A stretch of 63,989 nt of DNA, filler included, from Basidiobolus ranarum (Eukaryota): assembly GCA_040143965.1 (NCBI GenBank). It is 6 parts of 6 records of this genome, joined end to end, with 100 filler letters (N's around TTAATTAATTAA, not from the genome) between each part and the next. Parts side by side here need not be neighbours in the genome. Positions count along the whole stretch, not along the records: positions 43,481 to 54,224 come from JASJQH010007545.1; 5 more parts are not named here. One strand, 5' to 3'. The position numbers and the translations under genes were made by a program. Each line of letters opens with the position of its first letter. Position 1 is the first letter of the stretch. The notes beneath the pieces were generated by a model, which was not told the DNA's origin, did not search any database, and was given only the letters and a program-made list of their open reading frames with translations. This document shows, in pieces, positions 10,796-63,989 of this stretch.

Positions 10796-10895
10796 NNNNN
10801 NNNNNNNNNNNNNNNNNNNNNNNNNNNNNNNNNNNNNNNTTAATTAATTAANNNNNNNNNNNNNNNNNNNNNNNNNNNNNNNNNNNNNNNNNNNN
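10796..10895. other. Artificial contig linker
   Basis: N44-TTAATTAATTAA-N44, stops in all six frames. Confidence 0.99.
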
Positions 10896-14678: not shown

Positions 14679-15403
14679 TTTGATTTTGTTTAGTTGGTAG
14701 TTTCAGATATTTGAACCTGAGCATTGCTAGTCTACCATGGCAAGTTTTTATAGTTTTGAACCTTCGAAAAACAGTATAGGTGGCCGTTACACATGAATCT
14801 AAAAATCTTAGATGAATGGCAACTGTAGTTGAGCAAATTGAAAGATTATCATAATCTACTCAATATTTATCATCGAACTTCCCATTATTAAAATACTTGA
14901 TATGTACAGCAAAAGCTCGATAAACTGAAGTCGATCTCGATATTTTCTATCAACTTAGGGTGGTGCGTGCATATATCTGAGATTATCTTTTGTTTATCTG
15001 TATTCTACGTCATTAAAGTTCATTATGATGCTGAATATTTGTTGCTTAAGTGATACAGACTTGTGTTTATAAGTACGCTTAGGATAAATGACAAGTCTAT
15101 GTATGTGAACAACCCTTTGCTCTAACTTACATATATATATAAGCCCTGTAAAGCTGAATTCTGAAAACACCTTGAATCAGGTGTATCATAGCGATCTATA
15201 GGAATTATATCTTTCGCAGAGCCTTCATAACTTGGAACCTTTACTCCATTCGCACTGGGAAAAATCTTCATAGGAAAGAAACTGTAGCAATGTGTTAGAA
15301 CGTTTACCATGAACTTAAGTGAATACTACGCATAGTGCATGATTTATTTTTTTTCTTTGGATTAACACTGTACACACTTCCATAGAATCAAATATGCTGC
15401 AGC

Positions 15404-16136
15404 TGTTAAAGCATTTGGGAGCCTGTTGGAAGTGGTTTGGAGAATTAGAGAAATTGATGGTTACACTTGTTGATTTACTGAATATTCAGTTGACATTTAT
15501 AGTTTTGTCAAGATGTAAACAAAGTAACCTGTAGAATGTGTTAAGGAAGGTCCCAGGAACATGTGTGCAAAGTTTGGGGCTTCTTTGAAAAATCTACATA
15601 TATTCAAATTTTTAAGTAAATTCCTCTTTAGAATAGTTCATGATAACTTAGTTCAATATAGAATAACTCAATGCTAAACTATACATGACTATATAGATGT
15701 TTAAGCATCATACAGCGTAGTATTGGCTCTACTCACTGATCAAGTAGTTGATGCCAATTAATAGCATTGATATTGCAAGATTCTAGGTATAATGGAAGCA
15801 TAATGGATATTGGGAGTGTTGAAATTAGCATTGCCTAAACACCTATATAGTCATATATAGCTTAGTACTTAGTTATCTTATAATGAACTAAGATATTATC
15901 AATTTTTCTCATAAGGAATTTACTTAGAAGTTCTCAGATATATAGATTTTTCAAAGAAGCCCCAAACTTTGCACACATGTTCCTGGGACCTTCCTTAACA
16001 TATTCTACACGTTAGTTTGTTTACATCTTGACAAAACTATAAATGTCAACAGAATACTCAATAAATCAATAAGTGAAAACCACCAATTCCTCTAATTCTC
16101 CAAACCACTTCCAACAGGCTCCCAAATACTTTAACA
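15404..16136. mobile_element. Non-autonomous foldback element/MITE with ~300-bp terminal inverted repeats
   Basis: Left arm TGTTAAAGCATTTGGGAGCCTGTTGGAAGTGG... (15404-~15707) is the near reverse complement of the right arm ...CCACTTCCAACAGGCTCCCAAATACTTTAACA (~15832-16136). No ORF. Second copy at 54115-54224. Confidence 0.85.
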
Positions 16137-17463
16137 GGGAGAACTTGAGGTGTTAAGCAGGAGAATTTACAAAATGGCCCTATAAAGAATCTGAGAGATA
16201 TTTTTCAATCAGCATCAAGTAAAGTATTTATACTGTTTAATACTAATACAGAAAATAAATAACGGGCTTGTTCTTGGAAAATCAGTGAGTTGAGTGATTT
16301 ATCCCAGGGTCAGTTTGGATGACTTGTAATTTCATGATCAGCATAGCCAAATCATGAATAATTCACAAATGCACTGCTTGTACATTCCTATTTACAACTA
16401 AGTAACATTGAAGTGAAAAATTCTAACTAACTTATATCAAAGCTTGGGTAGTTTTGGACGGGTTTGAAAATGTCAGTCTTTTCTGACCATTTCCGACATT
16501 TATCAAATATATACAAAATACAGGTGACAGTTTAGACTTTCGAAATTTTGGTTAAACATTTCATATACTAAACAAGACATATGAATAGTTAGGTAGTTAA
16601 TTCTAAAATTTAAACCAATTGCTCAGTATGTGCATGAGACTGTGCAACACTTGCCTCGTTTGACATAAATTTCTTGTTTGATTGCAATTGTACATATCCA
16701 TAAGCATTAGAAAGCTGCAGGAATCTAGTATCTATAAATGCAATAGTATCAATAAATATGGCATGCTTGGATTAGTTGGAAGAGCAACCTAGAAAATACA
16801 TGTAAAATCGATATAAGATAAAAGCAAATGTACAATAATAATATATATAATTCACTCGAAGACTTTATAGCTGCTAATAGAATTACTTATCATATTCACA
16901 AGAGCTATGAATGTTGAAATATAGTGAATTTCATCATGCAAGCATTCTATGGTAGTAAAGTTACCATAAGCTTTGATCAATGAACATGTGACATATTAAT
17001 AATTCATTTACATGTTGCTAACATCCCTACTTCATTTTAGTCAGATAAAGATTTCAATTAAAGTTCAGGACTTGAAACGAAGATCAGCCAGTTTTATAAA
17101 TAGAAATTATTAATCACATTCAATGAGTATTGATCGTGTAACATCCATATCCAAATGCATACTGAGGTCTGTGTTAAACATGGTGCTTAGAAGTGGTCAA
17201 TACTAGAAGTAATGAAGAATCACTAACTGTATTAGTGTTACCGCTCATTAAACTAAATGTGGAATGGATCAACACCTCCGTATAAAATCAGATTCATATA
17301 TAAGATAAATATTACAATTGAATTTAATATCAGTTCATGAGATTATGTGTAAAATGTAAAGAAAGGGAAGGGAAGGAAAGCATGAAAGTGGGTATAATAA
17401 ATATATCGGTAAAATGATAGTCGATAATTAGGGTATAAGTGGTCCTCTAAGTGGTGATCTCTT

Positions 17464-21668: not shown

Positions 21669-21768
21669 NNNNNNNNNNNNNNNNNNNNNNNNNNNNNNNN
21701 NNNNNNNNNNNNTTAATTAATTAANNNNNNNNNNNNNNNNNNNNNNNNNNNNNNNNNNNNNNNNNNNN
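21669..21768. other. Artificial contig linker
   Basis: N44-TTAATTAATTAA-N44. Confidence 0.99.
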
Positions 21769-32531: not shown

Positions 32532-32631
32532 NNNNNNNNNNNNNNNNNNNNNNNNNNNNNNNNNNNNNNNNNNNNTTAATTAATTAANNNNNNNNNNNNN
32601 NNNNNNNNNNNNNNNNNNNNNNNNNNNNNNN
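32532..32631. other. Artificial contig linker
   Basis: N44-TTAATTAATTAA-N44. Confidence 0.99.
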
Positions 32632-43380: not shown

Positions 43381-43480
43381 NNNNNNNNNNNNNNNNNNNN
43401 NNNNNNNNNNNNNNNNNNNNNNNNTTAATTAATTAANNNNNNNNNNNNNNNNNNNNNNNNNNNNNNNNNNNNNNNNNNNN
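43381..43480. other. Artificial contig linker
   Basis: N44-TTAATTAATTAA-N44. Confidence 0.99.
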
Positions 43481-46240: not shown

Positions 46241-47989
46241 TCAAGTACGCTTCATAACTAGTTTTAGCACCTGATTCTGAGTAACCTGGCCTGTATAGGT
46301 AATTAATAGTTTACTTCCCTCTTGTCTCCACATGATAACATTTTCTGGAACTGTCGAGATGGTATATCCATTGGGATAATTGATTCGCTTCGAAAAGTTG
46401 ATCTCGGTGGGTGCCATGATCTTTGGATTGGCAACCCATTCTAGTGTAAATGATCCATTGGAATCATCAAAATGCATGGATTTGGCAATACCAGCTACGG
46501 CCGAGGCGTAAGTACGAGCATTCAATGGTTCCATATCAGGGCGAACTTCCCCACTGACAGAATCGAATAACGAGGACCCAGCATTGCCGTCATGTTCAAA
46601 TGATTTATACACCCATCCAGTCCAAGAATGAAGGAATTGATCCGAAACTTGAACTGAATGGAGTATGTCATCGCGTTGAGCCTGATTACCATGCCACATG
46701 GTGAACTCAGTTAGCATTCCCCCACAACTCAAACGATTCATATCCTTGACTCGGTTTTTATATGTCTCCTCAATAGAGACCAATTGAGGTGGCTTGTAGT
46801 AATGCCAAGAGAGTACAGTTTTCTCTGCGTTTGCTGCACCCCCTGGGACATTATTGAATCCTGAAAGAATATTCCAAGTAACTCCTTCGAAGAATATCAG
46901 CGTTTCATTATCAACTTTACGAATTTCCTGGTTGCATTTGTTCCACAATGGTTCAAGGACCTTTTTATCAGCAACCCCTGGGACCAACAGAGTAGGATCT
47001 GCCCAGGTGTCTCCAGCCCAAGGTTCTGTATTATATCCAGAACTATTGATCAGTTTAATATCAACAGAAAAAATCTTGCAAATCTTACCATTCATCAAGT
47101 TATATCCTAAAATATTGGAGTATTTTCCAAATTCTATTGCCAATTTCTTCCAGTAAGCGGCGAATGAATCTCCTAAACCATCATAATTGTTGTATAATCT
47201 GGAAAAGGGACTTTAGTTAATATGATCAACAAGAACCAAGAAAAATTCAATTATGCACCTTCCAAATGCATTTCCCACGGCCATCGTAAGGTAGCTCAAG
47301 TCCCATCGAATGGTACCACATTGACCAGGTAAGGGAATACCTCTCGCATCTGTTTTGAACGGTTGAAGCTTCTGTGGGAAAGGAAACTTTTTGATTCGTG
47401 AAACCCAGTCAGGCTTAGCAAACCACTGCGAAAGAGATCAGTTAATAGTGTTTCCAGCTCTCGCATCGAAGGAAAATACTTACTTCTGGTGCCCCTTCAC
47501 CACAAAACTGTGGAGCAAGTACATCTTGATGCATATCAATAAGAACATAGATGTTGTACTTGGCACAAAATTGTATAATCTTATGAGCTACATCAATATA
47601 CTTTTGATCGTAAACACCGCGAACTGGCTCAACACCAGCCCAGAGAACACCTTTTCAATTAAAGTTTATAAATAAATGTCTGACAATAAAGCATACTCGA
47701 AATATTTCCTACCAAGACGTATAGAGTTGATTCCTAATTCAGAGAGTAGCCGTGCATCCTCCTCACTAAAGGATTTAGCCGCGTCAAAGTGATCAATGAC
47801 GGGATGGTAAGGAGGATCCTTAAAGACAACATTAGTTCCATGGAAGAAACGAGCACGACCGGCGCTATCAATAAATTGATGAGTAGCTTTGTCGGACTTT
47901 ACAACACGATAGTTCTCAATCGCATTGGCGCGTTGGAATACGCTACAGGCAAGTATTGTCGTTAGCAGTAGTTTGGATAGGAGGCTCAT
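46241..47989 (-). CDS. Secreted GH5 endoglycoceramidase-like glycoside hydrolase, multi-exon
   Basis: Signal peptide MSLLSKLLLTTILACSVFQRANA; FIDSAGRARFFHGTNVVFK, LIDMHQDVL, LGYNLMN|EPWAGD (acid/base NEP), MLTEF (nucleophile), RTYASAVAG, GH5 C-terminal beta-sandwich. Confidence 0.88.
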
Positions 47990-49117: not shown

Positions 49118-50011
49118 ATGTTTCAAATACAACATGTGAGTAAGTCAACTAATTTTATACCTAATTCTATGCATCTGAGTAAAGATTCTCTGCAGAAGAA
49201 AGCCATTCAATATGTGGCTTCGAAGACTCAGAGTGGGGTACCAGTAGACCGAGATATCCGAATAACAGTTCACTTTCATCCAGACACACTATATCAAGGT
49301 CGCTTCTTGATAGAGGAGTTAGCCGATAGAGGTGAGTACCTATCTCAATTTGAAACGGGTACAAGCAATGGCGGCTTGACTGCTATAGTCGGCGGAGAGA
49401 GATGGCAGTGGGAAAGTTGCATCTTTGGAGGTATATACGATTCCGCTCCTGCCTTAGAACGTCCAAAATATGGTTCGCTAAACTTTAGGAAACGTAGCCT
49501 TGGGGGTTCTCCTCGTTTCGGCTCAGCTTTTTTTCAACTTAAAGAAGCTACTCTTGACCGAGCGACCTTTTGTTACCCTGATAGTTATTATTCCCCAGAA
49601 AATTTTTCTGTGGCTCAGAGTTCGTATCTCATAGATATAGCAAGAGCAGATCGTAAGGATATCCTTGATGACTACATTGAAGCACAAATTCATGGCCCAT
49701 TGTCGATTGCTAATGATGTTGAAATCCTGGTACTTGACCCTTGCTATAAAAATACAAGAGTAGAAGAGGTGGCGAGCCAATTGCCTTGCAAAGTTGAATG
49801 GCATTCAGGTTTCATTTTGTTGTCAGAAGTGATTGTTCAACATCAAAATTATCGCGGTGAAGAGTACGTACAACTTGGTTTAGCATTAATGAAAGATGGA
49901 ATGTTAACTGCAAAAGACATTGGTGAAGCAGCCGCTACAGGAAAATACAGCGCCCAAGATTTAAAAAAAGTATGGCACTATGTCGCCCGATGGGGTGGAA
50001 ATTACTCTTAA
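49118..50011 (+). CDS. DUF3626-family protein, intronless, bacterial-type
   Basis: ITVHFHPD, YLSQFETGTSNGGLTA..GGERW.WE, ERPKYGSLN, GGSPRFGS, RATFCYPDS, LDDYIEAQIHG, LVLDP, LKKVWHY, recognised from memory of DUF3626. True start may be the later Met (MHLSK, ~49169). Confidence 0.8.
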   Translation: MFQIQHVSKSTNFIPNSMHLSKDSLQKKAIQYVASKTQSGVPVDRDIRITVHFHPDTLYQGRFLIEELADRGEYLSQFETGTSNGGLTAIVGGERWQWESCIFGGIYDSAPALERPKYGSLNFRKRSLGGSPRFGSAFFQLKEATLDRATFCYPDSYYSPENFSVAQSSYLIDIARADRKDILDDYIEAQIHGPLSIANDVEILVLDPCYKNTRVEEVASQLPCKVEWHSGFILLSEVIVQHQNYRGEEYVQLGLALMKDGMLTAKDIGEAAATGKYSAQDLKKVWHYVARWGGNYS

Positions 50012-51618: not shown

Positions 51619-53111
51619 ATGACTATTACTTCTCGCCCTCACGTGATAATCTTTCCATATCCTGCTCTGGGTCACATCACTCCAGCTCTTCATTTAGCAT
51701 CCGCCTTATTTTCTACTTTTGACATCACATTTGTGACAACAACCTTTTACCTAGCTCGTACACAACAGATACTTGCTAAGGATCATTCACAGCTGATCTC
51801 TGATGTCAATGTTGTGGGCCTAAGTGAAGGTCTTCCAGGAGGTGAAGGTAGCACTGATAACCTTCCCAGACTAGCTGAAGCTACCGAGGGGCCTGTTTTA
51901 TCTCAAGGTTTTGATAACTTGGTGGTGGAATTATTGGAAAAGAAGCAACTGATAGCTATTATCACAGACACCTTCCTTGGTTGGGTTCAGGATATCGCCA
52001 ATCGTTATAGTCTACCCAGATTTCTCTTTTATACTCCTCCTGCCTCTGTTCTCTCTTTGATGTTTCAGTTGGAAGGATTTCAGAAGGATGGGCTCCTTTC
52101 CCCCTCCTCAGAAAAGCTCATCACTATCCCTGGCTTTCCAAAAGAACTTCAACTCTCTGACTTGCCATCTCATTTACAGGACTCTTCAAAGTTCATGTTT
52201 GGCTACTTTTTGAGGCACGCATCACGTGTCAAGGAAGCGGCGGGAATTCTTTGTAATACGGTATATGATCTGGAAAAGAATGTAATTGACGCTTTAAGAT
52301 CTGGTGAGATTTCCCAGGCCAAAAATGTACCAATTTGGACAGCAGGACCAATGATATCGGCAACCTTCTTTGAAGACCAAGTTGAAAAGAAACCATCTAC
52401 CAGTACTCCATTGAATGATACAGAAGTTGTCTCTGAAGAACAACAATGTTTGACCTGGTTAGATACCCAAGAAGAAGTAAGTATTATATTCCAAAGAGTA
52501 ATCGCTCATCAGAATTCCAAGTAACCCAACTATTCTTCTAGGATTCAGTTGTGTATATTTCATTTGGTAGTATCGCTGTTCTTTCCGAACAGCAGATTCA
52601 TCATCTAGCACAGGCACTTCTCTCTACAAATAAGCGTTTCCTCTGGGTTTTACGTCAACCTGAAGGCTGCACCTCAGCGCTTCCTGAAAACTTCCTTAAC
52701 GATACAAAGGAACAAGGACTCATAGTCAGCTGGTCACCTCAACCTAAGGTTCTCGCACATCCTGCTGTTCGTGTATTTCTTACCCACTGTGGTTGGGGTT
52801 CGACTATCGAGGCCATTTCTCTAGGGAAACCACTGATTGCATGGCCATGCTTTGCGGAGCAGAAGATCAATACAAGATTTCTTGTGGATGGTCTCCATGC
52901 TGCAATAGAAGTCAAGAAAGATACAAATGGGATGGCCGATACAACAGTGATAATTGATGTCATCGAAAGATTCTATTCCGATGAAGGACAGGTGATAGTA
53001 AATAACATGGAACAGCTTAGGACGGTAGTACAAAAAGCGGTAAAAGAAGATGGATCTTCAAAACAAGGCCTAAAAGATTTCATGAATGCCATTTTGAAGT
53101 ACAGTGTATAA
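51619..53111 (+). CDS. Family GT1 UDP-glycosyltransferase with plant-type PSPG box (475 aa, one intron 52477-52541)
   Basis: HVIIFPYPALGHITP (catalytic His), IITDTFLGW, CLTWLDTQEE|DSVVYISFGS, RFLWVLR, WSPQPKVLAHPAVRVFLTHCGWGSTIEAISLGKPLIAWPCFAEQ, AVKEDGSS. Confidence 0.93.
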
Positions 53112-54114
53112 TCTAATTTTAATAATTGATTACATATGAACAAATCTTGGACATTTCAATGTTTATATTAATTAAACTACTACCTGTGCATTCACCTTGA
53201 CACTCTTGAACTAGATCATTTCCCCTACATCGTGATATAAAAGTACTATTCACCCCCTCCCATCTGCCGAAAATGTTTGTTATAGATCTCTATCTGTCCA
53301 GCAGAAGTCAGAGCGTAAGTATCCATCTCAAAGCCTCTAATTAATATCGTATCAAATATATAATGGTATCATAACTATATTGATGATATAGTGTCATTAT
53401 ATACAGATATTAAGACTCGATAAATATCTTAACCTATGTATAATCTAATAGTAATATTATTAGTCTTATAATAGGATAGGTGTAGGTCAGATATCATTTC
53501 TAAAATAATGATTTTAATTTTGAAATACATTAATCTACACTATGATAGGCAGATGTAGGGGGAGCAAGACTACAATGATCTTGGGGTACATGTTCAATAT
53601 TAATCTCTATACTTAGTCACCTCGCAACATCATGAAACTAACATATTGAAGGTTTTCAATATTGTATTCTTTTTTTATGGTATTGTGACCATAACTTATG
53701 ATTCAGACAGGATATGTACTTAAAGTCTTCCTTCAGGTGACTCCTGCAGTACATACCTAAAAAATAGAATTAGATACCAGAGTTGCTCTGATATTGTAAT
53801 CTCACAAGACAAACATTTACAGTCATATATCAATGAACCATGTGCATTGATCTATTTTGACTGCGTTTAATATAATCTGTGTTAATGATTTTTACTTCTT
53901 CTACTTAGTTCTAAGAAATTTGGTCAGTTAGACGAGCTAACTCCTGATGTATCAGATAACGGCTTATTTTCATTCAATTCCATCAGCAGGTATGTTTGGG
54001 TTGTTCAATAATCTCCTATGGATATCTAAATTTCTTTAGGATACGTTCTGCTATACAACCTATTATATTTAAAGTCCCATGAAATCTGGAATCTTTAGCA
54101 ATATTGCTTGTACT

Positions 54115-54224
54115 TGTTAAAGTATTTGGGAGCCTGTTGGAAGTGGTTTGGAGAATTAGAGGAATTGGTGGTTTTCACTTATTGATTTATTGAGTAGAAA
54201 GTTGACATTTATAGTTTTGTCAAG
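54115..54224. mobile_element. Terminal arm of the same foldback/MITE family, cut by contig end
   Basis: TGTTAAAGTATTTGGGAGCCTGTTGGAAGTGGTTTGGAGAATTAGAGGAATTGGTGGTTTTCAC... is near-identical to the reverse complement of ~16027-16136. Confidence 0.88.
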
Positions 54225-54324
54225 NNNNNNNNNNNNNNNNNNNNNNNNNNNNNNNNNNNNNNNNNNNNTTAATTAATTAANNNNNNNNNNNNNNNNNNNN
54301 NNNNNNNNNNNNNNNNNNNNNNNN
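54225..54324. other. Artificial contig linker
   Basis: N44-TTAATTAATTAA-N44. Confidence 0.99.
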
Positions 54325-60691: not shown

Positions 60692-63600
60692 TTAGTACTC
60701 ACTCTGGTCACTTCCCAAAGTGGCTTCGTCAACTGAGTCTAAAGGCGGAGAGATTACTCCATTGCGAGTTGCGCGTTCAGCACGAGACCGGATAACTTTG
60801 CCGCTGTTAGCGGTCACGCTTTGATAAGCTTCTAAATCTCTTTCCAAACGCATCACCTTTATCTTGTACTGATCACGGACTTTACACAAGGTAAGATTCT
60901 CCTTCCTCAAGATGATGTTTTCTTCTTTGAGTTGGGTGATATGCTTGATCTTTTGCTTAGAGTTGGTATGGCCTAATAGTTTGGCATTTTGTCCATTGAT
61001 CTTGGCTAATTCATCGAAAGCCATTGAGTGCTTCTGGGCAAGGAATTGTGATTGAAGTTGCATTTGCTCTTCCATTTCCATACGAGCATTATCTGCAACG
61101 TTTGCCTTATTTCGTAATGTATCCACTTCCAAAATGAGTCTCTCAACTTCAGCTTCAGCAGTGTTAGCAATGTGGGCAAGACGTTTACGTTCGGACAACC
61201 AAGTTGTCATATCCTGGTCGAGACGACGGTTCAAGCTATCAATTTCTCTCTCTTGGCGATCAAGTTCGCGTTCGTTTTGCTCCAACTGTTGTTGTAAGAA
61301 TTGAGTTGAGGCCTTGACATGGGCTTCCGATTGCTCATTCATTTGAGCAAGCTTGGCTTCTAACTCTTGAATACGTTTGGCTTGCTCTTCATTAGTAGCA
61401 ATAGCAATAGCTTGACTTTGTTCGGCCTCTTCTTTCAGTGTTTGACGTTCTTCCTCGAATTCCAGACGCATTTTAGAAAGCAATGAGAGGGCCAGGTTGG
61501 ATTCTAATTGATCTCTGATTTGGGAAACGTCTGAAAGTTGGCTAGTGATGTGAATTAGACTATCAGATATTTCTTTCTCGATTTGAATCTCTTCAAAGTT
61601 TGAATGAATATCTTGTCGTAAATGAGTCACTTCACCATCAAGTAAATGGAATTCCTCACTCAATCTTTCTATCTCTTGAACATCGTCAGATTCATAGGTC
61701 TGTGATGAGAGTTGGAAATTTTCAAACAAATCGTTGAGCTGTTGGACTTGCTGTTCGCTGGCTTCTAGTTGCTCTCTAAGAATTTCGGCTTCGTTTCCAA
61801 GAAGATGGATTTGCAAATCACTTTCGGTAGCTTTCAATGTGAGATCTTGAATTGTTTCCATTTGAAGCTTTTCAAGTTCCTTTTGTTGGATGTATTTGCT
61901 CTTGGCATCCGACACAAGTAGTTCAATTTGCTGATCACGAGCTTGAATTTCACCCTCCAAATAACTTTGTGTCTCAATCAGCTCTTCACCGATTTGTTCC
62001 AATTCTTGTTCGAGTCTAGCAATCTCCTGAGTACTTGACTCACGATATTCTTCGAATTCACGATTAGCAACTTGAATGGCTTCATTCAAGTTAGCTACGG
62101 CATTAGCATTGGAGTCCTGTTCTTCTTTGAGCTCAATACCGACACGTTCTATGGTGCGATTCAGTTCGGCGATTTCAGCAGCCGTAGAGTCTCGGTGCTC
62201 ATCGAATTCTTGGCTGATACGTTCAATTTCAGTGTTGAGACCTTCTATTTGATGGTCACTGGATTCACGTTGTTGTGCAAGCTCTGTGTTGACCTGTTCG
62301 ATAGTACTATTCAACTCGGAGATCTCAATTGATTTTGTGTCACGGTATTCTTCGAATTCCTGGTTGACACTCTTGATCTTCATGTTCAAATCGACGATCT
62401 CCGTTGAGCTTGATAAACGTAGACCTTCTAGATCACGACTAATCTGTTCAACAGAACTTTCCAAACCCTCAACTTCTTCTTGGAGGGATGAAATAGTGGC
62501 CCGTTTCTCCTCAAGTTCATTGTTGAGATCACCGATTTGGTTGTCACTGGATTCACGTAGTTGAGCAAGTTCGGTGTCCAACTGTTCAATGTGGCCATTC
62601 AACTCGGAGATCTCAATAGTCTTAGTGTCACGATATTCTTCATATTCCTTGTTGACACTGTTGATCTTCGCGTTCAAGTCGGCAATTTCTTTCGAGCTAG
62701 ATTCACCATGTTCCTTTAGATCATGGTTAATTTGTTCAACTGTGCTTTCCAATTCTTCTATTTCTTCTTGAAGAGATGAAATGGTAGCCTGTTTTTCTTC
62801 GAGTTCATGATTAAGGTCGCCAATTTGACTATCGCTTGTTTCACGTAGTTGAGCAAGTTCGAAGTTCGCCTGTTCAATAGCACTATTCAGTTCTGAAATC
62901 TCAGTTGATTTAGTGTTTCGATATTCATCGAATTTCTTGTTAACACTTTTGATTTTCTTGTTCAAGCTGTTAACTTCTTTCGAGTTGGACTGTTGATGCT
63001 CTTCGAGGTCACGGTTGATCTTTTCAACAGAATTCTCCAATTCTTCAACTTCTTCCTGAAGGGATGAGATTGTAGCCTGCTTTTCTTCAAGCTTAACATT
63101 AAGTTGATCAATTTGGCTGTCACTGGATTCACGTAGTTGTGCAAGTTCGGAGTTAACCTGTTCAATAGTACCATTCAACTCGGAGATCTCAATTGATTTA
63201 GTGTCACGGTATTCTTCGTATTCCGTGTTGACACTCTTGATCTTCATGTTCAAGTCCATCATCTCCTTCGAGCTTGATTCACGAAGTTCTTTCAGAACAT
63301 GGTTAATCTGTTCAACCGTGCTTTCCAATTGCTCAACTTGCTCTTGGAGGGATGTGATAGTAGCCTGGTTTTCTTCAAGTTCAGCGTTAAGACTATCAAT
63401 GGAGTCCTGAAGTTCTTTGGTCTGCTTGGAGTGTTGATCGTTGGTTTCTTGCAACTCTTTCTTGAGTGAACGGATTTTCTTCTTCTTTGCTGAGATACTT
63501 TCATCAAATTCCTCTGTTTTCTTGATCAAAGTCTCTCGTGCATCAGTCAAATCAGTTTCTAAATCTTGGATAGTCTTTTGAATTGCTTGACTTTCCTTGT

Positions 63601-63820
63601 TGAAAGATTTGGTAGATTTCTCTAGTTTTTGGTTAGCTTCTTCGATGGTAGCTTGAAGATCCGACACGGTAAGTTGTAAATCATCGATCTCTTGCTCATG
63701 ATTTTCACGCATGGACTCAAGCTCTTGGGCTTGTTCTGTGAGTAGAGCTTCCTTCTCAGCAGTCCATTTTTGTCCAGATTCCAAATGGATTTTAGTTTCT
63801 TCCTCCAATTTGGACTTCAA
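60692..63820 (-). CDS. Long coiled-coil protein with C-terminal HMMR/KIF15-like motif, probably 5'-incomplete
   Basis: Over 1000 aa of E/Q-rich coiled coil ending in LLGHTNSKQKIKHITQLKEENIIL. The ORF begins at a TTG, so upstream exon(s) are likely. Confidence 0.75.
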   Translation of the reverse strand: MKSKLEEETKIHLESGQKWTAEKEALLTEQAQELESMRENHEQEIDDLQLTVSDLQATIEEANQKLEKSTKSFNKESQAIQKTIQDLETDLTDARETLIKKTEEFDESISAKKKKIRSLKKELQETNDQHSKQTKELQDSIDSLNAELEENQATITSLQEQVEQLESTVEQINHVLKELRESSSKEMMDLNMKIKSVNTEYEEYRDTKSIEISELNGTIEQVNSELAQLRESSDSQIDQLNVKLEEKQATISSLQEEVEELENSVEKINRDLEEHQQSNSKEVNSLNKKIKSVNKKFDEYRNTKSTEISELNSAIEQANFELAQLRETSDSQIGDLNHELEEKQATISSLQEEIEELESTVEQINHDLKEHGESSSKEIADLNAKINSVNKEYEEYRDTKTIEISELNGHIEQLDTELAQLRESSDNQIGDLNNELEEKRATISSLQEEVEGLESSVEQISRDLEGLRLSSSTEIVDLNMKIKSVNQEFEEYRDTKSIEISELNSTIEQVNTELAQQRESSDHQIEGLNTEIERISQEFDEHRDSTAAEIAELNRTIERVGIELKEEQDSNANAVANLNEAIQVANREFEEYRESSTQEIARLEQELEQIGEELIETQSYLEGEIQARDQQIELLVSDAKSKYIQQKELEKLQMETIQDLTLKATESDLQIHLLGNEAEILREQLEASEQQVQQLNDLFENFQLSSQTYESDDVQEIERLSEEFHLLDGEVTHLRQDIHSNFEEIQIEKEISDSLIHITSQLSDVSQIRDQLESNLALSLLSKMRLEFEEERQTLKEEAEQSQAIAIATNEEQAKRIQELEAKLAQMNEQSEAHVKASTQFLQQQLEQNERELDRQEREIDSLNRRLDQDMTTWLSERKRLAHIANTAEAEVERLILEVDTLRNKANVADNARMEMEEQMQLQSQFLAQKHSMAFDELAKINGQNAKLLGHTNSKQKIKHITQLKEENIILRKENLTLCKVRDQYKIKVMRLERDLEAYQSVTANSGKVIRSRAERATRNGVISPPLDSVDEATLGSDQSEY
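62233..63385 (-). repeat. Intragenic tandem repeat, 288-nt (96-aa) unit, about 4 copies
   Basis: TCAACTCGGAGATCTCAAT recurs at 62311, 62599 and 63175 (variant ~62887), spacing 288 nt. Boundaries approximate. Confidence 0.9.
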
Positions 63821-63989
63821 CTCATTGCTGTTGGAATGGCTTGCTGGCCAATAATTTTAATCTACTTAAATCTTCCTACTTCTGAACGGTATAAGAGTCA
63901 TAATGTTTTGATACTATCCATCATATCTGGACCTAAATCACCAGTGCTTATAGATAGCTTCTTGGAGCCTTTGATTGCGGAATTTGAAC

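Follow-up and report, generated by a model that had tools for sequence, protein, structure and literature searches.

The window analysed here, i.e., the whole stretch of 63,989 nucleotides of Basidiobolus ranarum DNA, filler included, consists of six contigs joined by runs of N and a TTAATTAATTAA spacer. A UDP-glycosyltransferase (UGT) gene lies intact on contig 5 (43481-54224, 10744 nt), where it occupies positions 51619-53111 on the plus strand and comprises two exons. Exon 1 (51619..52476, +) is an open frame from the first ATG (286 codons) and encodes residues 1-286, corresponding to the N-terminal acceptor-binding Rossmann-like domain and the linker, and exon 2 (52542..53111, +) encodes residues 287-475 (189 codons), corresponding to the C-terminal UDP-sugar-binding domain, and ends with TAA. 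The two exons are separated by a spliceosomal intron of 65 nt (52477..52541, +), read directly from the sequence, which begins with GTAAGT, ends with TTCTAG, and lies in phase 0 at the Glu286/Asp287 junction, such that the block CLTWLDTQEE/DSVVYISFGS spans the splice site. Introns of plant UGTs are described as conserved group by group and mostly in phase 1 in the accessible part of a study of that family (PMC3412749). When the 65-nt intron is taken out, the product is exactly the NCBI protein K7432_010097 [Basidiobolus ranarum] (P0003), identical over 100% of the length, and the 475-residue spliced protein proposed in the preliminary description of this DNA is thereby reproduced. The UGT gene is a real, intact B. 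ranarum gene and is probably expressed.

Three further features are located on the same contig. A glycoside hydrolase family 5 (GH5) endoglycoceramidase-like gene, K7432_010095 (46244..47989, -), is a neighbour comprising five exons and carrying the Pfam domains Cellulase and Glyco_hydro_5_C; its best named non-self matches are fungal endoglycoceramidases (45-48%), and its four introns are of the GT..AG type and measure 62, 58, 60, and 63 nt, in keeping with the earlier remark that the intron of the UGT gene resembles those of its neighbours. An intronless DUF3626 gene (49118..50011, +; Pfam DUF3626, E 1.5e-57) lies 1.6 kb upstream of the UGT gene, and its nearest Atlas clusters, among those listed, are 90-100% bacterial. 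Finally, the end of contig 5 is formed by a repeat copy of 117 nt (54108..54224, no strand assigned), which is 94% complementary, in inverted orientation, to positions 16027-16143 on contig 2. The contig 2 copy belongs to a foldback element (15403-16143) located between an allantoicase open reading frame (ORF) and an aminolevulinate-synthase-like (ALAS-like) ORF, and an MDM31/32 ORF is found on the same contig; the repeat is thus situated beside core fungal genes, as had been pointed out beforehand. Tandem Repeats Finder detected nothing on contig 5.

The similarity of the encoded protein to plant UGTs, as measured by profile and structure-database comparison, is far beyond chance. The Pfam family UDPGT (PF00201) matches exon 2 with E 1.1e-22 and the whole protein with E 3e-23, both beyond the curated cut-off, and residues 2-177 of exon 2 (protein residues 288-463) align with the structure of plant UGT72B1 (2vce) with E 1.5e-37. 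The N-terminal half (residues 5-285) also aligns with solved plant UGTs (best E 4.5e-19), the best 60 PDB matches listed for either half are all plant-type UGTs, and both domains are colinear with solved plant UGTs from end to end. Furthermore, the Atlas model of the protein has a pTM of 0.88 and TM values of 0.85-0.88 against streptophyte UGT clusters, and among the 30 nearest by features every cluster row listed is a Streptophyta UGT. Every motif of the plant UGT set quoted in the preliminary description is present in the translation, and the complete 44-residue PSPG box with Glu-Gln at its end was located at W350-Q393 (52731..52862, +). In comparison with the 75 plant-like rows of the tree set described below, the box has the majority residue at 29 of its 44 positions and matches 16 of the 19 columns conserved at 80% or more, the deviations at conserved columns being R363, G372 (Asn in 97% of the plant-like rows), and K382. 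Gly replaces this Asn in both Basidiobolus paralogs and could affect donor binding. The pair of His and Asp is established as catalytic in the UGT family. His19 (codon 51673..51675, +), in the motif PALGHITP, is the predicted catalytic base and is invariant in the alignment (99% of the 75 plant-like rows and all three fungal rows have His here), and its predicted partner, Asp117 (codon 51967..51969, +), in the motif IITDTFLGW, is shared by 89% of the plant-like rows and by all three fungal rows. In a crude hydropathy test, no 19-residue stretch reached the level usual for transmembrane segments (Kyte-Doolittle mean, maximum 1.25), and the C-terminus is hydrophilic. By these sequence criteria, the protein is a plant-type (PSPG-box) family-1 UDP-glycosyltransferase, predicted to be soluble.

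Transfer of a sugar from a UDP-sugar to a small-molecule acceptor is predicted from the family. Briefly, the protein would fold into two Rossmann-like domains, in which the C-terminal PSPG box, as in other members of the family, would hold the UDP-sugar, the terminal Glu-Gln of the box suggesting UDP-glucose as the donor, and the N-terminal domain would bind a small lipophilic acceptor. His19, aided by Asp117, would remove a proton from a hydroxyl (or an amine or thiol) of this acceptor, which would then attack C1 of the sugar with inversion to yield a beta-glucoside. Its likely role would be to conjugate phenolics of plants, other xenobiotics, or metabolites made by the fungus itself.

Relatives of the protein were identified by sequence search. 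Among the matches listed, the nearest are, in order, the paralog K7432_012893 (78%), a protein of the chytrid Blyttiomyces helicus (40%), and land-plant UGTs (27-38%). The 120 matches listed comprise three fungal proteins, 98 land-plant proteins at 27-36%, and 19 proteins without an organism name. An exhaustive search yielded 8520 matches, and within the best 150 of these no match other than the paralog and the Blyttiomyces protein falls into the fungal clade in trees, so that the fungal holders among the best 150 of 8520 are B. ranarum (two copies) and Blyttiomyces helicus only. The UGT gene is accordingly part of a small fungal lineage made up of two paralogs of Basidiobolus and a single chytrid gene (best 150 of 8520 matches), whose members share long invariant stretches, e.g., residues 79-86 and 88-93; a broad, vertically inherited fungal clade, which the preliminary description had set against the idea of transfer, was not found within the same 150 matches. 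Among the matches listed, the nearest relatives of this lineage, as far as sequence similarity indicates, are streptophyte UGTs. Bacterial and archaeal relatives were sought in 185,579 species genomes by two scans with three short motifs, in which 0 of 8 and 0 of 50 motif matches were found to encode one; of 221 plant-like rows, 146 contain the motif of the first scan. In the plasmid collection, the best bacterial matches extend over 27-43% of the protein, with identities of 26-33%, and full-length likeness to bacterial macrolide-type GT1 enzymes (MGT/OleD-like) was not found there or in the motif scans of the 185,579 genomes.

The phylogenetic position of the fungal proteins was examined in a tree set of 75 plant-like rows, three fungal proteins, and three bacterial outgroup enzymes; labelled streptophyte-alga and bryophyte UGTs, other fungal GT1s, and animal GT1s lie outside this set. 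The plant-like rows are the matches most similar to the query, many of which were assigned to plants through their clustering with named rows, and the affinities of top matches lacking names were judged from local BLAST against named rows together with the trees. Free and constrained trees under LG+G4 were obtained by fast IQ-TREE searches. The three fungal proteins form one clade (support 99), which in the best trees with the bacterial outgroup is nested within plant UGTs and is grouped with UGT72-like, UGT73/92-like, and lycophyte rows (support 98-100), with the bacterial root placed elsewhere. Minimum-variance (clock-like) rooting likewise nests the fungal clade in plant UGTs. The tree path from the protein of the window to the plant-like rows has a median of 2.48, and that between plant-like rows a median of 2.57. 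A constrained topology, in which the 75 plant-like rows form one clade and the fungi stand beside the bacterial outgroup, is not rejected by the AU test: under LG+G4 the log-likelihood is -71031.35 (AU 0.56) for the tree that keeps the fungi apart from all 75 plant-like rows versus -71035.90 (AU 0.44) for the free fast search, and under the mixture model it is -69058.98 (AU 0.495) with the fungi outside versus -69058.97 (AU 0.505) for the free tree. Since the constrained mixture-model tree is the best from an unfinished search and its fit is a lower bound, the non-rejection is only strengthened. The bacterial matches are on very long branches, and the three outgroup enzymes are distant and aligned mainly in the C-terminal half; therefore, the root is weak either way. 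Of the tree check proposed in the preliminary description, nesting within plant UGTs was observed in the best trees, and a rejection of the topology with the fungi outside was not obtained (AU about 0.5).

Plant-to-fungus transfer is probably the origin of the gene, to judge from these comparisons, and is the leading reading. After an old transfer from a land-plant or streptophyte lineage into fungi, the gene may have gained its intron, adapted its codon usage, and been duplicated. For a donor within the land-plant radiation, at least two transfers would be needed, since the holders are a chytrid and a zoopagomycete. The joint reading, i.e., a resident PSPG-type UGT that glucosylates small molecules and probably derives from an old transfer from the plant lineage into fungi, is rated slightly better than an even chance. 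The preliminary description had proposed a plant-type UGT in a fungal genome, which stands, and a plant origin, which does not stand to the same degree, the closest relative outside the genus being a chytrid protein (40%) and plant proteins reaching 27-38% among the matches listed.

The strongest competitor, in which the fungal clade is sister to plant UGTs and persists as a relic in a few early-diverging fungi after loss from most others, is unlikely, with a sizeable residual probability. It draws on the equally good fit of the constrained topology, where the fungi stand apart from the 75 plant-like rows, and on the composition of the clade, whose members come from two deeply divergent fungal phyla and retain the long invariant stretches at residues 79-86 and 88-93, as would fit old common ancestry in fungi. 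By contrast, vertical descent would demand very many losses, given three fungal members in the best 150 of 8520 matches, and the fungal-plant distances are no greater than those between plant UGT groups, which would be odd for a split preceding the streptophytes. Furthermore, the free trees and the minimum-variance rooting nest the clade beside UGT72/73-like and lycophyte rows, and long-branch attraction between bacterial and fungal sequences could alone yield the sister topology. In a stronger form of the same explanation, the fungal clade would be kin to the lineage that supplied streptophytes with UGTs. In the portion available of a survey of 10 Archaeplastida species, UGTs are described as present in streptophytes only, and a eukaryote outside Archaeplastida is raised as one possible source from which streptophytes acquired them (PMC10513242). 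That the Basidiobolus-Blyttiomyces clade is sister to all streptophyte UGTs and marks a non-plant source lineage of the streptophyte family appears doubtful, with a low probability; if it were so, transfer would have run towards plants, or the two groups would share a donor that has since been lost.

Contamination or misassembly, by which a plant or some other eukaryote present in the sample, and not Basidiobolus, would be the source of the contig or the gene, is very improbable. The assembly is fragmented, with the UGT gene on a contig of 10.7 kb and its paralog on one of 7 kb, and among the matches listed other Basidiobolus species are absent for both the UGT gene and the GH5 neighbour, two observations that would favour this explanation. 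Against this, the plant proteins among the matches listed are all at most 38% identical, which leaves no sequenced plant group as the source, and the GH5 neighbour is of fungal type with introns of 58-63 nt, close in size to that of the UGT gene. The composition of contig 5, which was to be checked according to the preliminary description, is in line with that of the five other contigs: its GC content is 0.383 versus 0.387-0.396 in the others, its mean 4-mer correlation of 0.656 falls inside the range of 0.615-0.696, and GC3 is 0.362 in the UGT gene versus 0.383 in the neighbouring gene. The 117-nt repeat (94%) connects contig 5 with another contig carrying genes typical of fungi, and the second copy of the gene, at 78%, resides on another contig of the same assembly. 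The UGT gene is resident in the fungal genome and plant contamination is unlikely, as had been argued beforehand from the host-sized intron and the shared repeat.

A bacterial origin, as with many foreign genes reported in Basidiobolus, is less probable still. Bacterial gene acquisitions by Basidiobolus are known, as stated in the consulted part of the corresponding report (PMC7466969), and the DUF3626 gene next to the UGT gene, which lacks introns, appears bacterial; by contrast, no motif match in the 185,579 bacterial and archaeal species genomes was confirmed as a relative, and the best matches of the plasmid collection are partial, divergent, and on very long branches. Convergence, in which an ordinary fungal GT1 would resemble plant UGTs in the nucleotide-sugar motif alone, a motif whose looser form is common to all UGTs, has a near-negligible probability, given that the likeness covers both domains, including the fast-evolving N-terminal half, and that the best 150 of 8520 matches group with plant UGTs that carry names. 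Contamination by plant DNA, a bacterial source, and convergence were set aside on the basis of context and composition, motif scans, and two-domain likeness, respectively.

PSPG-box UGTs are a hallmark of the chemistry of land plants, where they serve in the storage, detoxification, and regulation of phenolics, terpenoids, and hormones. The Basidiobolus gene adds a member to this already known kind of enzyme, plant-type UGTs, and the duplicated resident copy together with the chytrid relative constitutes the closest non-plant kin of the UGT family among the matches listed. In the literature searched, no published report of a plant-type UGT in Basidiobolus was found. Plant-to-fungus transfer is described as uncommon in the accessible section of a review (PMC12448838), and the entries available from the supplement of a transfer survey of 44 fungi place UDPGT xenologs in Neocallimastigomycota only, with Ruminococcus as the donor (PMC11291939). 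The fungal UGTs make it testable whether a detoxification enzyme was taken by fungi from plants and, with regard to the question raised in part of the survey cited above, from which source the streptophyte UGTs were derived (PMC10513242). The predicted soluble fungal UGT should express well in bacteria and may provide a new biocatalyst for the glucosylation of phenolics.

The fungal phenolic UGTs MhGT1, UGT58A1, UGT59A1, UGT61A1, and UGT66A1, likened here by their descriptions in the available parts of two reports, share the likely task of phenolic glycosylation and GT1 chemistry (PMC10334773, PMC12667342), whereas UGT58A1 and UGT59A1 are stated in the former to be predicted membrane proteins (PMC10334773) and the Basidiobolus protein has no such predicted segment. 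Blyttiomyces helicus BDK51DRAFT_43047 (P0005), the closest protein outside the genus among the matches listed (40-44% identity; clade support 99), shares invariant blocks with the Basidiobolus proteins, e.g., TDNLPRLA, ATEGPV, DLPSHL, and PCFAEQ, although it is 441 residues long, lacks approximately 15 linker residues, and retains Asn in HCGWN. Among the matches listed, the nearest plant-like rows (34-39%) are the lycophyte UGT O6H91_10G078300 of Diphasiastrum complanatum (P0007) and P0134, P0143, and P0154, which are also nearest by tree path (1.86-2.02) and have a G-[TL]-D element in common with the fungal GTDNLPRLA stretch of the N-terminal domain; however, they carry insertions that are absent from the fungal proteins and form no exclusive supported pair with the fungal clade. 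Land-plant UGTs in general differ from the fungal protein in full-length identity (27-38% among the matches listed), in the fungal host and fungal-sized intron of the latter, and in the near-invariant Asn of HCGWNS, where the fungal protein has Gly, with R363 and K382 atypical as well. Nonetheless, land-plant enzymes such as Arabidopsis UGT72B1 (hydroquinone glucosyltransferase, 2vce) are alike in length class and colinear domains and share with the fungal protein the catalytic His and Asp, the 44-residue PSPG box with its Glu-Gln end, the C-terminal GSS, and the absence of a predicted membrane anchor.

The genome of Basidiobolus ranarum harbors a resident, intact, and duplicated gene for a UDP-glycosyltransferase (UGT) of the plant type. 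The window does not represent a single locus but consists of six artificially joined contigs of nearly the same length (~10.7 kb each); features are not to be read across the joints (10796-10895, 21669-21768, 32532-32631, 43381-43480, and 54225-54324), each of which comprises two 44-N runs flanking a 12-base spacer (TTAATTAATTAA at the fourth joint). The UGT gene is located on the plus strand of the fifth contig (43481-54224) and consists of exon 1 (51619-52476; 286 codons counted from the first ATG), a phase 0 intron of 65 nt (52477-52541; GTAAGT...TTCTAG), and exon 2 (52542-53111; 189 codons and TAA). Splicing yields a 475-aa protein identical to NCBI K7432_010097, annotated as "hypothetical protein," and all motifs listed in a preliminary description of the gene are found in the translation.

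Exon 2 matches the Pfam family UDPGT (E 1.1e-22), and its best match among solved structures is Arabidopsis UGT72B1 (2vce; E 1.5e-37); 106 distinct PDB sequences match, and all 60 of these that were listed are plant-type UGTs. Exon 1 has no match in the Pfam library search, and its residues 5-285 align with plant UGT structures (66 matches, best E 4.5e-19), so that the likeness to plant UGTs is not confined to the nucleotide-sugar motif and extends into the variable acceptor domain. The sequence is contained in the ESM Atlas with a confident model (pTM 0.88), and every Atlas cluster listed, whether retrieved by features (from the 30 nearest) or by structure, consists of Streptophyta UGTs (TM 0.85-0.88). 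Compared with 75 plant-like sequences, i.e., matches that cluster with named plant UGTs, His19 and Asp117 occupy columns conserved at 99% (His) and 89% (Asp), respectively, and the PSPG box (W350-Q393) carries the plant majority residue at 29 of 44 positions and agrees at 16 of the 19 strongly conserved ones, the exceptions being R363, K382, and G372. Residue 372 (codon 52794-52796) is Gly in both Basidiobolus paralogs, and the same position (HCGW-N-S) is Asn in 97% of the plant-like sequences, in the chytrid relative, and in three bacterial outgroup proteins; the Gly may alter UDP-sugar binding. The enzyme would act as an inverting UDP-glucosyltransferase on small lipophilic acceptors, probably phenolics or other xenobiotics. 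TDNLPRLA and ATEGPV (residues 77-93; 51847-51897) are identical between the Basidiobolus and Blyttiomyces proteins at an overall identity of 40-44%, and only a G-[TL]-D element is common to the lycophyte sequences in this region; the two strings may represent an acceptor-site signature of the fungal proteins.

Streptophyte UGTs are the nearest relatives of these fungal proteins. Of 8000 candidates scored in a word-indexed search with the whole protein, 315 matched at E <= 1e-10, and the top three of the 120 listed are the UGT, its paralog, and a Blyttiomyces helicus (chytrid) protein at 40% identity. The other named entries are all from land plants (27-36%, n = 98), with a lycophyte (Diphasiastrum), ferns, Selaginella, and angiosperm UGT84/74/86/85/72-like proteins at the top, and 19 lack an organism name. 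Furthermore, 1.84 billion cluster representatives were searched exhaustively with HMMER, yielding 8520 matches at E <= 1e-3 (3947 of them at E <= 1e-10, 998 of them at E <= 1e-30). The best 150, listed without organism names, were examined as relatives; the best single-domain match without a name (P0134) is nearest to the Diphasiastrum protein (45%, local BLAST). Two motif scans of 185,579 bacterial and archaeal species genomes confirmed none of 8 and none of 50 motif matches as relatives; the motif of the first scan is present in 146 of 221 plant-like sequences. The best bacterial matches, from a plasmid collection, are limited to the C-terminal part of the protein (27-43% of its length, 26-33% identity), and three such proteins were used as the tree outgroup.

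The UGT lineage is monophyletic and common to Basidiobolus and a chytrid. In a FastTree phylogeny of 224 sequences (the collected proteins of 420-560 aa and three bacteria, leaving out 42 proteins outside this range and two exon fragments), both Basidiobolus proteins group with that of the chytrid (support 99), and this fungal clade lies in a clade of 54 sequences (support 98) with UGT72-like, UGT73/92-like, and lycophyte sequences, outside which the bacterial root is placed. A quick IQ-TREE search (LG+C20+F+G4, PMSF) of 81 sequences, namely 3 fungal ones, 3 bacterial ones, and 75 plant-like ones picked to cover the FastTree clades, is in agreement (fungal clade SH-aLRT 99, within a 29-sequence clade of support 100). 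The fungal clade most likely stems from a gene transfer long ago, with the streptophyte lineage as donor, after which the intron would have been gained and codon usage would have become host-like. It attaches below the point where lycophyte and seed-plant sequences diverge, and the low identity, deep attachment, gained intron, and host-like codon usage together point to an ancient event; a donor within land plants, given the presence in Chytridiomycota and Zoopagomycota, would require a second transfer. Alternatively, the fungal clade may be sister to the streptophyte UGTs as a whole. A constrained tree, with the 75 plant-like sequences forced into one clade and the fungi beside the bacteria, fits as well as the free tree: under LG+G4, its lnL of -71031.35 is slightly above that of the free fast search (-71035.90; AU 0.56 vs. 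0.44), and under the mixture model, the two differ by 0.014 lnL (AU 0.495 constrained vs. 0.505 free). Between these trees, the long bacterial branch shifts and the fungal clade stays at the base of the 29-sequence group, so whether it is "nested" depends on the root, which these data do not fix. The observation in the preliminary description is confirmed and its interpretation partly supported: it holds for a plant-type UGT in a fungal genome, and this decisive test does not support the proposed plant-to-fungus origin. Minimum-variance rooting without an outgroup separates the 29-sequence group from the other 49 sequences (variance 0.0807 vs. 0.0985 with the root on the fungal stem), and the median tree path from the Basidiobolus protein to the plant-like sequences (2.48) does not exceed that among the latter (2.57), which modestly supports an origin within the plant radiation. 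The sister-lineage alternative gains interest from PMC10513242, in which UGTs are reported only from streptophytes among 10 Archaeplastida species, those of Klebsormidium are sister to the remaining ones, and either losses or uptake from a eukaryote outside the Archaeplastida are proposed.

The next gene to the UGT, a GH5 endoglycoceramidase-like gene (K7432_010095; 46244-47989, minus strand, five exons), has best named non-self matches in Ascomycota and Mucoromycota endoglycoceramidases (45-48%), and its four GT..AG introns (62, 58, 60, and 63 nt) are of one size class with that of the UGT, as previously proposed. The GC and GC3 contents of the UGT (0.427 and 0.362) and the GH5 gene (0.428 and 0.383) are similar, and contig 5 is no compositional outlier (GC 0.383 vs. 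0.387-0.396 in the other contigs; mean tetranucleotide correlation 0.656, inside the range 0.615-0.696). Contig 2, whose ORFs include MDM31/32, allantoicase, and aminolevulinate-synthase-like ones, carries a foldback, MITE-like element (15403-16143; 258-nt inverted arms, 85% complementary), and a 117-nt copy of an arm of this element (94% match) forms the extreme end of contig 5 (54108-54224), bearing out the suggested repeat link to core fungal genes; the assembly probably breaks there because of this copy. The remaining contigs contain ordinary eukaryotic housekeeping genes, and contig 6 carries a 1054-aa ORF (60692-63856, minus strand) with weak Pfam matches to the filament-like families DUF1664, Filament, and HMMR_C and, inside it, four tandem units (62137-63300) that recur every 288 nt and share 61-80% identity. 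A paralog of the UGT (K7432_012893, 78%) is located on a separate contig, and plant proteins reach at most 38% identity among the matches listed. Plant contamination, already argued against in the preliminary description, is very unlikely because of the neighboring gene with its introns, the composition of the contig, the shared repeat, the paralog, and the low identity to plant proteins. As a caution, no protein of another Basidiobolus species occurs among the listed matches of the UGT or the GH5 gene; either such proteomes are absent from the database or the region varies within the genus. An intronless gene of 297 aa (49118-50011, plus strand; DUF3626, Pfam E 1.5e-57) lies 1.6 kb upstream of the UGT and is a second foreign-looking gene, possibly a bacterial acquisition; its nearest Atlas clusters listed are 90-100% bacterial (Actinomycetota and Pseudomonadota), and by structure the protein more weakly resembles phage Mu F-like minor capsid proteins and a cluster of RHS-repeat proteins (TM about 0.55-0.58).

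The kind of enzyme is well known. Its host and the small clade of fungal proteins are, to the extent searched, new, and literature searches turned up no report of the Basidiobolus UGT. Plant-gene transfer to fungi (Richards et al., 2009; Nikolaidis et al., 2014) is cited in a 2025 review (PMC12448838), the accessible portions of which do not mention glycosyltransferases. In the supplement of PMC11291939, UDPGT xenologs are given only for Neocallimastigomycota, with a Ruminococcus donor, and Blyttiomyces is not among the fungi covered. A hydropathy scan of the Basidiobolus UGT revealed no stretch at transmembrane level and a hydrophilic C-terminus, a profile that agrees with soluble plant UGTs and differs from UGT58A1 and UGT59A1, which are described as predicted membrane proteins in PMC10334773.
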